A stretch of 18,165 nt of DNA. Source: a virus. Taxonomy: Duplodnaviria; Heunggongvirae; Uroviricota; Caudoviricetes. Numbering within the stretch: the first letter of the stretch is position 1; every line of letters begins with the position of its first letter. The stretch is from the IMG/VR virus record IMGVR_UViG_2681813004_000010; one strand, written 5' to 3'. A program made the translations under genes and the position numbers. Under the pieces are notes generated by a model. It had not been told where the DNA came from. It ran no database searches and worked only from the letters and a program-made list of their open reading frames with translations. Below, one piece after another: positions 4,666 to 16,415 of this stretch.

Positions 4666-4941
4666 ATGTCGATGTACACAACCGCCCAGCTGCTGGCGGC
4701 AAATGAGCAGAAATTTAAGTTTGATCCGCTGTTTCTGCGTCTCTTTTTCCGTGAGAGCTATCCCTTCACCACGGAGAAAGTCTATCTCTCACAAATTCCG
4801 GGACTGGTAAACATGGCGCTGTACGTTTCGCCGATTGTTTCCGGTGAGGTTATCCGTTCCCGTGGCGGCTCCACCTCTGAATTTACGCCGGGATATGTCA
4901 AGCCGAAGCACTTAGCATGGCTTTCTGAGGCTTTCGTGTAG
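4666..4941 (+). pseudogene. E: major capsid protein gpE, 5' fragment (codons 1 to ~82, then 9 unrelated codons and a stop)
   Basis: MSMYTTAQLLAANEQKFKFDPLFLRLFFRESYPFTTEKVYLSQIPGLVNMALYVSPIVSGEVIRSRGGSTSEFTPGYVKPKH matches the lambda gpE N-terminus. After ~4911 the sequence becomes …LAWLSEAFV-stop and lambda collinearity ends. Intact gpE is 341 aa. Confidence 0.85.
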
Positions 4942-5073
4942 TTGCTGGTTTTTACACTTAATCTTTTGATAATAAAGAATAAGTTTATCTGGCGCTTTCA
5001 CTGGATTTTCCTCGTTATCTGTGTGTTGCAATCATCTCTGTATTGCAGCTTGTATTGCTTTTTGGGGCTAAAA

Positions 5074-6309
5074 ATGGCTGGTGAGAACAAACTGAGCGAC
5101 AAAGCACTTAAAGGATATCTGGGGAAACCCAGAGAAAAGCAGATCACCATTGCTGATGGAAAGGGGCTTTCTATTCGTGTGAGTACCAAGGGGGCTGTGA
5201 GCTTTGTTTTCTTCTACAGGTTAGCAGGTGGCCGGGCTGCTCCGGTCTGGCTAACGTTGGGTAAATATCCTGATATGTCACTCAAACAGGCAAGGGAAAA
5301 GCGCGACGAGTGCCGTGGTTGGTTGGCTGACAAACGTGATCCGCGTATCCAGATTAAGATTCAGGCTGAAGAACGCTTAAAGCCGGTCACAGTGGAGGAT
5401 GCACTAAATTACTGGTATGAAAATTACTGTAAGGTGCGTCGTAAAACTCATGCTGTAACGCTTGGCAGATTTCGAAAGCATATCTTTCCCTATATCGGTC
5501 ATTTGCCCGTAAATGACACTCACCTATATGAATGGCTGGACTGTTTTGACCGAATTAAACGTAATGCACCAGTTATGGCGGCGTATGTTTTTTCTGACAC
5601 TAAATTAGCTCTTCGTTTTTGTCGGGTACGCCAGTACGCGACGTGTGATGCTTTAAAGGATTTGCGCATGAGTGATGTGGGGCAGATTGCAGGTAAGCGG
5701 GATCGGGTTCTGGATGAAGCCGAACTGGGCCAGCTCTGGAAGGCAATTTTTGTCGAGCCTGATTTAAAACTAATGTCTGAATACACGCGAAAAATGTTTG
5801 TGCTTTGTACAGTATTTGGATGTCGAATGAGTGAAGCCCGATTATCAGAATGGAGCGAATGGGATCTCGAAAGTTGGGTTTGGACTGTACCAAAAGAACA
5901 CTCAAAAACCGGTGTTGAAATCGTCAGACCAGTACCTGAAATTCTACGACAGTGGGTAACGGATGTTCACGAAGAGACAAAACATACTGGTTATGTGCTG
6001 GGAAGTCTGCGAATTAGAGAAAGCGTAAGCAAGATTGGGGGGAAAATCGGTAAACGTTTGGGCCATGAAAAACAATGGTCACTACACGACCTTAGAAGAA
6101 CGCTATCTACTCATCTAAGTGATCTCGGTGTTGAATTTTATGTAGTAGAACAACTGTTAGGCCATGCGCTACCTGGCGTGGCAGGTGTTTACAACCGGAG
6201 TAAGTTTATGGCTAAAAAACTGGATGCTCTGGAACTCTGGACTACATATCTCAATAGCATCGCAGGTGCTGATTCAAAAGTGACAATCCTCAAACAAAAG
6301 GCTGGTTAA
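5074..6309 (+). CDS. int: tyrosine site-specific integrase, P4-type
   Basis: N-terminus (GKGLSIRVSTKGAVSFVFFYRLAGG…LTLGKYPDMSLKQAREKRDE) looks like the arm-binding domain of P4-like integrases. C-terminal catalytic region has …WSLHDLRRTLSTHL… and …LLGHALPGVAGVYNR (H-x-x-R and catalytic Tyr). The track start at 4942 is an extension; the ATG at 5074 is taken as the start by homology. Confidence 0.9.
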   Translation: MAGENKLSDKALKGYLGKPREKQITIADGKGLSIRVSTKGAVSFVFFYRLAGGRAAPVWLTLGKYPDMSLKQAREKRDECRGWLADKRDPRIQIKIQAEERLKPVTVEDALNYWYENYCKVRRKTHAVTLGRFRKHIFPYIGHLPVNDTHLYEWLDCFDRIKRNAPVMAAYVFSDTKLALRFCRVRQYATCDALKDLRMSDVGQIAGKRDRVLDEAELGQLWKAIFVEPDLKLMSEYTRKMFVLCTVFGCRMSEARLSEWSEWDLESWVWTVPKEHSKTGVEIVRPVPEILRQWVTDVHEETKHTGYVLGSLRIRESVSKIGGKIGKRLGHEKQWSLHDLRRTLSTHLSDLGVEFYVVEQLLGHALPGVAGVYNRSKFMAKKLDALELWTTYLNSIAGADSKVTILKQKAG

Positions 6310-6310
6310 C

Positions 6311-13854: not shown

Positions 13855-14400
13855 ATGGAAGCCAACAAAAAGCAGCTGGCTGACATTTTCGGTGCGAGTA
13901 TCCGTACCATTCAGAACTGGCAGGAGCAGGGAATGCCCGTTCTGCGAGGCGGTGGCAAGGGTAATGAGGTGCTTTATGACTCTGCCGCCGTCATAAAATG
14001 GTATGCCGAAAGGGATGCTGAAATTGAGAACGAAAAGCTGCGCCGGGAAGTTGAAGAACTGCGGCAGGCCAGCGAGACAGATCTCCAGCCAGGGACTATT
14101 GAGTACGAACGCCATCGACTTACGCGTGCGCAGGCCGACGCACAGGAGCTGAAAAATGCCAGAGACTCCGCTGAAGTGGTGGAAACCGCATTCTGTACTT
14201 TCGTGCTGTCGCGGATCGCAGGTGAAATTGCCAGTATTCTCGACGGGATCCCCCTGTCGGTGCAGCGGCGTTTTCCGGAACTGGAAAACCGACATGTTGA
14301 TTTCCTGAAACGGGATATCATCAAAGCCATGAACAAAGCAGCCGCGCTGGATGAACTGATATCGGGGTTGCTGAGTGAATATATCGAACAGTCAGGTTAA
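13855..14400 (+). CDS. Nu1: terminase small subunit Nu1
   Basis: 181 aa, MEANKKQLADIFGASIRTIQNWQEQGMPVLRGGGKGNEVLYDSAAVIKWYAERD…, near-identical to lambda Nu1 as I recall it. 26-nt overlap with A as in lambda. Confidence 0.92.
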   Translation: MEANKKQLADIFGASIRTIQNWQEQGMPVLRGGGKGNEVLYDSAAVIKWYAERDAEIENEKLRREVEELRQASETDLQPGTIEYERHRLTRAQADAQELKNARDSAEVVETAFCTFVLSRIAGEIASILDGIPLSVQRRFPELENRHVDFLKRDIIKAMNKAAALDELISGLLSEYIEQSG

Positions 14401-16114
14401 CAGGCTGCGGCATTTTGTCCGCGCCGGGCTTCGCTCACTGTTCAGGCCGGAGCCACAGACTGCCGTTGAATGGGCGGATGCTAATTACTATCTCCCGAAA
14501 GAATCCGCATACCAGGAAGGGTGCTGGGAAACACTGCCCTTTCAGCGGGCCATCATGAATGCGATGGGCAGCGACTACATCCGTGAGGTGAATGTGGTGA
14601 AGTCTGCCCGTGTCGGTTATTCCAAAATGCTGCTGGGTGTTTATGCCTACTTCATAGAGCATAAGCAACGCAACACACTTATCTGGTTGCCGACGGATGG
14701 TGATGCCGAGAACTTCATGAAAACTCACGTTGAGCCAACCATCCGTGATATTCCGTCGCTGCTGGCGCTGGCTCCGTGGTATGGCAAAAAGCACCGGGAT
14801 AACACGCTCACTATGAAGCGTTTCACCAATGGTCGTGGCTTCTGGTGCCTGGGCGGTAAAGCGGCAAAAAACTACCGTGAAAAGTCGGTGGATGTGGCGG
14901 GTTATGATGAACTTGCTGCCTTTGATGAGGATATTGAACAGGAAGGCTCTCCGACGTTCCTGGGCGATAAGCGTATTGAAGGCTCGGTCTGGCCAAAGTC
15001 CATCCGTGGCTCCACGCCCAAAGTGAGAGGCACCTGTCAGATTGAGCGTGCAGCCAGTGAATCCCCGCATTTTATGCGTTTTCATGTTGCCTGCCCGCAC
15101 TGCGGGGAGGAGCAGTACCTTAAATTTGGCGATAAAGAGACGCCGTTTGGCCTCAAATGGACGCCGGATGACCCCTCCAGCGTGTTTTATCTCTGTGAGC
15201 ATAATGCCTGCGTCATCCGTCAGCAGGAGCTGGACTTTACTGATGCCCGTTATATCTGCGAAAAGACCGGGATCTGGACCCGTGATGGCATTCTCTGGTT
15301 TTCGTCATCCGGTGAAGAGATTGAACCGCCTGACAGTGTGACCTTTCACATCTGGACGGCGTACAGCCCGTTCACCACCTGGGTGCAGATTGTCAAAGAC
15401 TGGATGAAGACGAAAGGGGATACGGGAAAACGTAAAACCTTCGTGAACACCACGCTCGGTGAGACGTGGGAAGCGAAAATCGGCGAACGTCCGGATGCTG
15501 AAGTGATGGCAGAGCGGAAAGAGTATTATTCAGCGCCCGTTCCTGATCGTGTGGCTTACCTGACCGCCGGTATCGACTCCCAGCTGGACCGCTACGAAAT
15601 GCGCGTATGGGGATGGGGGCCGGGTGAGGAAAGCTGGCTGATTGACCGGCAGATTATTATGGGCCGCCACGACGATGAACAGACGCTGCTGCGTGTGGAT
15701 GAGGCCATCAATAAAACCTATACCCGCCGGAATGGTGCAGAAATGTCGGTATCCCGTATCTGCTGGGATACTGGCGGGATTGACCCGACCATTGTGTATG
15801 AACGCTCGAAAAAACATGGGCTGTTCCGGGTGATCCCCATTAAAGGGGCATCCGTCTACGGAAAGCCGGTGGCCAGCATGCCACGTAAGCGAAACAAAAA
15901 CGGGGTTTACCTTACCGAAATCGGTACGGATACCGCGAAAGAGCAGATTTATAACCGCTTCACACTGACGCCGGAAGGGGATGAACCGCTTCCCGGTGCC
16001 GTTCACTTCCCGAATAACCCGGATATTTTTGATCTGACCGAAGCGCAGCAGCTGACGGCTGAAGAGCAGGTCGAAAAATGGGTGGATGGCAGGAAAAAAA
16101 GCGGTGTCTTATAA
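14375..16114 (+). pseudogene. A: terminase large subunit gpA, copy 2, truncated after codon ~575 (fused to E 3' sequence, ends …GRKK-SGVL-stop)
   Basis: MNISNSQVNRLRHFVRAGLRSLF… is collinear with lambda gpA through …[12 protein letters not shown], then reads 4 codons into E-derived sequence and stops. Copy 1 shows the normal continuation (…[16 protein letters not shown]…GEDE), so ~66 C-terminal codons are missing here. Confidence 0.85.
15134..16100 (+). repeat. direct repeat copy 2 (A gene segment), partner at 1-967
   Basis: See copy 1. The repeat ends at the A7 run (16094-16100), where copy 2 diverges into E sequence. Confidence 0.95.
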
Positions 16115-16415
16115 GGGAATGTATGGCGATGTGGCCATCGTCGTGTATTCCGGACAGTACGTGGAAAACGGCGTCAAAAAGAACTTCCTGCCGGACAACA
16201 CGATGGTGCTGGGGAACACTCAGGCACGCGGTCTGCGTACCTATGGCTGTATTCAGGATGCGGACGCACAGCGCGAAGGCATTAACGCCTCTGCCCGTTA
16301 CCCGAAAAACTGGGTGACCACCGGCGATCCGGCGCGTGAGTTCACCATGATTCAGTCAGCACCGCTGATGCTGCTGGCTGATCCTGATGAGTTCGTGTCC
16401 GTTCAACTGGCGTAA
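16098..16415 (+). pseudogene. E: major capsid protein gpE, 3' fragment (about codons 237-341)
   Basis: KAVSYKGMYGDVAIVVYSGQYVENGVKKNFLPDNTMVLGNTQARGLRTYGCIQDADAQREGINASARYPKNWVTTGDPAREFTMIQSAPLMLLADPDEFVSVQLA matches the lambda gpE C-terminus. It is joined in a different frame to A codon ~575 and has no own start except a fortuitous ATG at 16086. Confidence 0.85.

Follow-up and report, generated by a model that had tools for sequence, protein, structure and literature searches.

A probable 11capE-type satellite within capsid gene E of a lambda-like late operon, with a decayed or chimeric right end

The viral DNA analysed here (the window, 18,165 bp) is the entire contig AOTC01000230.1 of draft assembly GCA_001447405.1. 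We conclude, with a probability of roughly 85%, that it represents one lambda-like late operon in which the major capsid gene E is interrupted by a satellite of the 11capE type, a helper-embedded phage-inducible chromosomal island (HE-PICI), and that the right end of this composite is either decayed or chimeric. Insertion of a satellite into a prophage's capsid gene is already known. Tommasini, Mageeney and Williams (NAR Genom Bioinform 2023; PMC10111431) reported 11capE (Eco567.11.E_Phage_cap_E_80) from the E. coli NRG857c prophage 50icd, named the configuration HE-PICI and recorded 201 instances at the E site. The window contig is not listed among the HE-PICI calls published in the supplements to that paper.

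Lambda proteins were compared with the window by tblastn, and gene E was recovered in two pieces. Residues 1–82 of lambda gpE match positions 4666–4911 (100% amino acid identity, E=7e-51), and residues 237–341 match positions 16098–16412 (100% amino acid identity, E=8e-68); because of these E-values, chance matches can be ruled out. Codons 83–236 of lambda E are absent from the window. The sole other E-family match was the capsid gene of the island (11826–12860), which aligns with gpE over its full length at 42.4% identity. Since the window is one draft contig, the lack of codons 83–236 here does not imply that they are lacking from the genome; lambdoid E-to-U segments are found at a median of two places per matching E. 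coli genome. The genes of the helper phage identified in the window are as follows.

1..1167, + strand: terminase large subunit A, codons 254–641, first copy, truncated where the contig begins (99.5% to lambda A by tblastn)
1164..1370, + strand: W, head-tail joining protein, intact (97% to lambda W)
1367..2968, + strand: portal protein B, intact (98.9% to lambda B over 533 aa)
2949..4268, + strand: protease C, intact (97.7% to lambda C)
3663-4268, + strand: scaffold Nu3, nested in C, intact (97.5% to lambda Nu3)
4278..4610, + strand: helper decoration protein D, intact (96.4% to lambda D)
4666..4911, + strand: helper capsid gene E, 5′ fragment, codons 1–82 (100% to gpE 1–82)
16098..16415, + strand: helper capsid gene E, 3′ fragment, codons 237–341 (100% to gpE 237–341)
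16457-16855, + strand: FI (tblastn, 90.9% to lambda FI; Pfam Packaging_FI)
16867-17220, + strand: FII (tblastn, 96.6% to lambda FII; Pfam Phage_attach)
17232-17807, + strand: Z (Pfam Minor_tail_Z)
17804..18165, + strand: U, running to the contig end (Pfam Phage_tail_U)

Taken together, these genes give the late operon order A-W-B-C/Nu3-D-E-FI-FII-Z-U, and the stretch from FI to U is 100% identical in nucleotide sequence to the intact prophage of strain F2_407_2_2. The reading frame of the 5′ fragment of E continues into island DNA up to a stop at 4941, and the equivalent fragment in complete genomes is annotated as 'major capsid protein, missing C-terminus'. A frame check placed the 3′ fragment out of frame with a truncated second A gene. 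The coordinates and gene inventory of the initial annotation, which had been made from the sequence alone, proved accurate. It had described E as fragments of about codons 1–82 and 237–341 with the codons in between absent, the gpE-like gene of the island as the only complete major capsid gene in the window, a second decoration gene on the island, and the remaining lambda head genes as intact. By our comparisons, the island capsid gene (11823–12863) is 42% identical to gpE, the second decoration gene (12873–13214) is 38% identical to gpD and matches Pfam HDPD, and W, B, C, Nu3, D, FI and FII have their full length and are 91–99% identical to their lambda counterparts.

The same annotation had also interpreted the window as two prophage copies, that is, as two tandem lambdoid prophages, each with a truncated E, around an unrelated island. 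Sequence of A does occur twice (1–1167 and 14375–16099), and 11 kb separate the two E fragments. However, the fragments are complementary, non-overlapping ends of one gene, and the left one ends exactly at a published satellite attachment block. Moreover, the supposed second copy is only 2.4 kb long, consists of cos, Nu1 and A codons 1–575, and has no W, B, C or D. Complete genomes, for their part, show one prophage with the island inside E (980-2, AST215, UID2309220041 and NRG857c). We therefore consider two tandem prophages extremely unlikely and favor a single late operon interrupted by a site-specific satellite, plus a partial cos-Nu1-A duplicate.

Assignment of the satellite to the 11capE type starts from its left boundary. 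The island begins at E codon 82 (4911/4912). For site E_Phage_cap_E_80, the published identity blocks are aacccaagca or agccgaagca, with 10-bp attL/attR identity at about codon 80 of the capsid gene (PMC10111431 supplement), and the attP arms carry a doubled TGTATTGC motif at about −81 and +132 bp (132 ± 2) from the attP centre (PMC10111431). In the window, both the left block and the corresponding arm motif are present, followed by the genes listed below.

4901..4910, + strand: attL identity block AGCCGAAGCA of site E_Phage_cap_E_80, matching a published block variant and the attL alignment (PMC10111431)
5039..5058, + strand: HE-PICI attP arm, a doubled TGTATTGC motif at a distance of about 133 bp from the centre of crossover
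5074..6309, + strand: satellite tyrosine integrase, 411 aa (Pfam Arm-DNA-bind_3 and Phage_integrase; 99.5% amino acid identity to the NRG857c 11capE integrase)
6311..6541, + strand: AlpA regulator or excision factor (Pfam Phage_AlpA; 96% to the 11capE protein)
6556..7473, + strand: 305-aa protein in the variable zone, low GC content (33–36%)
8724..10544, + strand: satellite primase/helicase (Pfam D5_N, DUF5906, Pox_D5; 99.8% to 11capE Pri)
10543..10758, no strand: iteron-like direct and inverted repeats downstream of pri (repeats D3, I1, I2, I4)
11074..11511, + strand: satellite single-stranded DNA-binding protein (SSB), frameshifted, with a perfect 82-bp tandem duplication (11322–11403 / 11404–11485)
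11823..12863, + strand: satellite major capsid protein, gpE family, 346 aa (Pfam Phage_cap_E, E=4e-41; 99.4% to the 11capE capsid protein)
12873..13214, + strand: satellite head decoration protein, gpD family (Pfam HDPD; 38% to gpD; 99.1% to 11capE Dec)
13226..13609, + strand: AlpA-like helix-turn-helix (HTH) regulator of the satellite late zone, 127 aa (Pfam Phage_AlpA; PDB 8c3t, E=2e-9; 100% to 11capE)

The layout is that of a Gram-negative PICI: an int-alpA pair, a primase with downstream repeats, and a late zone, all transcribed in one direction. Such islands are about 10–20 kb long with unidirectional genes; the island of 980-2 measures about 10.6 kb, and the named island genes of the window all lie on the + strand, as does the late operon. 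The right boundary, by contrast with that of 980-2, is missing. An attR arm would be expected to read as a doubled TGTATTGC motif, then AGCCGAAGCA or AACCCAAGCA, then TGAAGTGAATCCG. Within the window, 4901–4910 is the only occurrence of AGCCGAAGCA, and the partner doubled TGTATTGC copy of the attR side (−81) is likewise absent from the window but present in 980-2.

Among 5,426 complete E. coli genomes, 173 contain the left (attL) junction of the window. In 980-2, the same island sits cleanly within E of a lambdoid prophage, flanked by the 10-bp direct repeat AACCCAAGCA. The order there is E 'missing C-terminus' (246 nt), int, alpA, variable zone, primase, SSB, capsid, decoration, HTH, terS and a DUF2971 gene; to the right of the island come E 'missing N-terminus' (789 nt) and then FI, FII, Z and U. 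AST215, UID2309220041 and NRG857c have the same architecture with different accessory genes. When the two E fragments were joined in silico at the repeat, an open E of 341 codons resulted in both 980-2 and AST215. A helper designed to be without a capsid gene is thus at odds with the canonical composites, which rebuild E on excision in silico.

These data suggest the following course of events. The satellite integrase would target the 10-bp block inside E, and as long as the satellite is integrated the helper would make no gpE. Upon induction, the satellite would excise and E would be rejoined, as published experiments showed for the type element and as in silico excision reconstructed for 980-2 and AST215. 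In NRG857c treated with mitomycin C, the whole composite excises and replicates, and the satellite excises at about 2 h, in 42–98% of excised composites; the satellite delays helper capsid expression until excision (PMC10111431).

What, then, is the role of the capsid and decoration genes carried by the satellite? The capsid-decoration module is present in 395 of the complete genomes, more than the 173 that have the attL junction. It is also found in a chromosomal PICI located between abgR and smrA, outside any prophage (L007). Judging by dN/dS values of 0.05–0.08 for the capsid gene and 0.08–0.16 for the decoration gene, both evolve under strong purifying selection. Among sequenced phages, no capsid protein was more than about 42% identical to that of the island. 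Because the module is present both in a PICI outside prophages and in composites with a restorable E, it is conserved cargo of the family and not a special replacement for a broken E. The idea that the island capsid gene compensates for the interrupted one is therefore not supported. As for the initial interpretation as a whole, the E fragments, the sole complete capsid gene and the intact head module stand, while the two copies, the designed capsid-less state and the compensation lack support.

It may nevertheless be asked whether the prophage in the window relies on the satellite capsid, with island capsid and decoration proteins building heads together with the helper portal, protease and scaffold, which would invert the usual dependency. 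In this contig, E cannot be rebuilt, as codons 83–236 and attR are absent, and the remaining head genes are all intact. Both the capsid gene and the decoration gene of the island are complete and kept under strong purifying selection, and they form a cognate pair without a portal, protease or scaffold of their own, so that helper partners would be needed if assembly occurs at all. In addition, Tommasini et al. raised the possibility that a captured late gene may serve as a backup copy of the interrupted gene (PMC10111431). Yet the equal presence of the module in PICIs outside prophages and in composites with a restorable E argues that it is no adaptation to the loss of E, and the island capsid protein, 42% identical to gpE, has no closer relative in sequenced phages. 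In EcCICFT073, deletion of the capsid (c1499) or decoration (c1500) homologue leaves interference with lambda plaque formation in place, and all packaged DNA is phage-sized (PMC6092414); Tommasini et al. cite that study for such capsid genes being dispensable for PICI transfer (PMC10111431). No plaque-forming particles were detected from the type composite (PMC10111431). The locus also bears other damage, namely the frameshifted SSB, the truncated second A and the lost attR, and the arrangement is seen on one draft contig only. On balance, dependence of this prophage on the satellite capsid is quite unlikely. The stronger version, in which the satellite is irreversibly fused into its helper and particles are still made with gpE- and gpD-like satellite heads on the helper portal, protease and scaffold, is very unlikely. 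If true, it would provide a natural example of a satellite-dependent helper and show how the capsid gene of a satellite can turn into that of a phage.

Returning to the interrupted single operon, we consider how its right end departs from the canonical composites. The features concerned are the following.

13666..13677, + strand: cosN 12-mer GGGCGGCGACCT, lambda type, within island-type flanks (sequence comparison)
13855..14400, + strand: hybrid small terminase gene, with island-type single-nucleotide polymorphisms in its 5′ part to about 14064 (about 70 codons) and phage Nu1 in its 3′ part; 98% to lambda Nu1
14375..16114, + strand: truncated second terminase A, codons 1–575 plus 4 foreign codons and a stop (tblastn: codons 1–575 at 14375–16099)
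16097..16100, + strand: junction of A codon 575 with E codon 237, with 3 nt (AAA) of microhomology (three-way sequence comparison)

In the alignment, island-type polymorphisms extend across cos and into the small terminase gene for its first ~70 codons, after which the sequence is pure phage Nu1, which places the left recombination joint within the hybrid gene, in about 0.5 kb of cos-Nu1/terS homology. The window follows the island of 980-2 to about 14160–14190 and, from 13634 onward, also aligns with the cos-Nu1-A region of the 980-2 phage. The segment 15134–16100 repeats window positions 1–967 with a single mismatch (924/16057). At its right edge, the join of A codon 575 to E codon 237 is, as far as the sequence can tell, an illegitimate junction. 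Lost from the right end are the 3′ half of the island-type terS, the accessory genes of the right-end cargo, attR and E codons 83–236. Recombination between E and the island capsid gene was considered as the source of the breakpoints and rejected: on the left, E breaks at the att block, and on the right it is joined to A and not to that gene.

Island small terminase genes differ even among canonical copies: terS has a nearly Nu1-like 5′ half and a divergent 3′ half in 980-2, is a truncated remnant in NRG857c and is missing from AST215. In 980-2, the first ~250 nt of the island terS (30273–30824), about 85 codons covering the Nu1 DNA-binding domain, are nearly identical to the helper Nu1 (15222–15767), and the rest is strongly divergent. 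By this comparison, some HE-PICIs encode a naturally chimeric small terminase. It is through the stretch shared by terS and Nu1, and through cos, that the rearrangement or mis-join in the window found its homology. If the structure is real, we infer that unequal exchange may have taken place between the phage cos-Nu1 and the island cos-terS, which lie 15,133 bp apart, a distance equal to the repeat period, and that a subsequent deletion would have produced the A575/E237 join. A circular cos-to-cos molecule of 15,133 bp was also considered as the source of the repeat period.

Is this right end genuine? We give the contig structure slightly better than even odds of being real. The alternative, which falls somewhat short of even odds, is that the right part is an assembly chimera between a canonical composite (attR, E 80–341) and a second lambdoid copy with an A575::E237 deletion, the assembler having crossed over in the near-identical cos-Nu1/terS stretch. 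Several observations favor such an error. The window is a complete 18-kb contig of a draft assembly, the switch from island to Nu1 falls within ~0.5 kb over which island and phage are roughly 97–98% identical, and the 967-bp repeat within the contig has 99.9% identity. Moreover, the contig start corresponds to one base past 15133, where prophage A alleles are polymorphic, which suggests that the assembly graph branched there and that the genome has two or more alleles of A. Neither the A575/E237 junction nor the junction of the island to full Nu1-A occurs in the 5,426 complete E. coli genomes. The exact 42-mer across A575/E237 is absent from one-genome-per-species and viral contig collections, and no other contig in a 153-billion-gene index encodes either the truncated A or the hybrid Nu1 protein.

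On the other hand, a join sharing 3 nt is typical of illegitimate recombination and not of k-mer graph errors, so that A575/E237 is probably real DNA. A related deletion is known as well. In the complete E. coli genome of CUPS03 (NZ_CP180690, 7426–9618), a lambdoid prophage has independently lost W, B, C and D through a deletion by which A, at about codon 539, is fused to E at about codon 148; it is of the same A-to-E kind as that of the window with other end points. This example of an A(1–539)::E(148–341) deletion speaks for a real structure, but it equally shows that a stand-alone A::E deletion prophage, as the chimera would need, exists. The flanks also bear on the question. Positions 3825–4910 and 16098–18165 show 0 mismatches to the intact prophage of F2_407_2_2, and few records share the allele of the right flank (9 of 3,788 matching ones at an identity of at least 99%), for which one prophage is the simplest explanation. 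Indeed, a single locus is favored because all phage segments of the window are near-identical to this one intact prophage. Finally, since one unique path leaves and re-enters the repeat, the contig order would, by our inference, be the only linear resolution.

If the contig is real, the simplest reading is that the satellite is locked in, E is permanently lost and the composite is decaying; Int-mediated excision is not expected because attR is missing. E would thus be unrestorable in this contig only, and only if the assembly is correct. If the contig is chimeric, the locus would be an ordinary canonical HE-PICI composite.

Several points count against our preferred reading of an 11capE-type satellite in a single late operon. 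Virions went undetected for the type composite, so that a full life cycle is only presumed in canonical copies as well. With attR and the second attP arm motif absent, membership in the 11capE type rests on attL, gene content and near-identity to the type element. For the right end, the evidence is the assembled contig. The contig adds only one rearranged, locked-in or possibly misassembled example to the known set, and its one use would be that of a natural test case: should the strain be real and still form particles, this would show gpE and gpD to be replaceable by the products of the PICI capsid and decoration genes.

The cosN site of the window deserves separate mention. At the position of the lambda cohesive end, four canonical E-site HE-PICIs, the type element included, read GGGCGTCAGGCG, which differs from GGGCGGCGACCT at 5 of 12 bases. 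The aligned coordinates are 30084–30095 in 980-2, 24975–24986 in AST215, 12845–12856 in UID2309220041, 10590–10601 in NRG857c and 12798–12809 in the chromosomal PICI L007. Lambda-type cosN is found in the island of the window and in the non-embedded L007, and the helper cos is of lambda type in 980-2 and AST215, where it is covered by the fetched stretch. A 60-mer around the GGGCGTCAGGCG variant occurs in 95 of the complete genomes. The HE-PICI paper is silent on cosN (PMC10111431). We speculate that the variant might protect the embedded island from an internal cut by the helper terminase.

Other island features complete the picture. The repeats at 10543–10758 are dense, consist of GTGAACAGT-like units and lie directly 3′ of the primase gene. 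PICI origins are located downstream of pri (PMC10111431), and these repeats are probably the satellite replication origin. The 82-bp duplication shifts the SSB reading frame and removes the acidic C-terminal DDIPF tail that the SSB of 980-2 has; it may reflect genuine decay or an error of assembly. The SSB of L007 is also annotated as frameshifted. The late-zone HTH protein was compared with PDB sequences as a candidate homolog of Rpp; it matched 8c3t (AlpA family), and no Rpp entry was found at E<=1 (phmmer, 127-aa protein only). The 305-aa open reading frame at 6556–7473 had no Pfam match and no match in the PADLOC search for defence systems. Its GC content is 33–36% compared with ~50% in its neighbors, and the same gene is present in 980-2; its position suggests accessory or defence cargo. 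Cargo of the variable zone and right end varies among the near-identical HE-PICIs of 980-2, AST215, UID2309220041 and NRG857c: a DUF2971 gene matching the PADLOC candidate defence family PDC-S31 (980-2, 30931–31689, − strand), DUF3892 (AST215, 25344–26848), a TIR-domain gene and an abortive-infection gene (UID2309220041, 5772–6647 and 14222–14983), and HEPN plus DUF262 (NRG857c, 11037–12753). These zones look like defence hotspots.

Among known satellites outside helper prophages, EcCICFT073, the model for cos-type PICIs of Gram-negative bacteria, shares with the island in the window the PICI organization, capsid and decoration homologs (c1499/c1500), lambdoid helpers and cos-dependent packaging (Fillol-Salom et al. 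2018, 2019; PMC6092414, PMC6739421), but it is chromosomal and redirects packaging by Rpp, which binds the helper TerS. SaPIbov5 likewise encodes a paralog of the helper major capsid protein, Ccm; however, Ccm has been shown to form small capsids, whereas the E. coli PICI model packages phage-sized DNA (PMC6092414). Capsid-forming PICIs (cf-PICIs; bioRxiv 10.1101/2022.09.08.507074; Cell Host Microbe 2023) also encode an HK97-fold major capsid protein of their own. Unlike the present family, they encode the proteins for head formation and packaging in full (TerS, TerL, portal, protease, capsid and connectors) and take only tails from the helper. Canonical copies of our island carry capsid and decoration genes only, with or without TerS, and what the window holds of A in this region is a truncated copy from the helper.

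The closest relative is 11capE itself. The window shares with it the target site in E, one of the two published block variants at attL, the arm motif on the attL side and the gene order int-alpA-variable zone-pri-ori-SSB-capsid-Dec-HTH-cos, with core proteins 99–100% identical. It differs in a divergent variable zone (6529–8064), a frameshifted SSB, a lambda-type cosN in place of GGGCGTCAGGCG, and the absence of attR, accessory genes and E codons 83–236, where a duplicate of phage Nu1-A(1–575) is found instead. More distantly, genes restored by excision are represented by sigK, interrupted by the skin element in B. subtilis, and comK, interrupted by phage phi10403S in Listeria. In those cases too, a gene is split by a mobile element and regains its reading frame when the element undergoes programmed excision; the difference is that here the interrupted gene belongs to a helper phage and the regulation serves the satellite.

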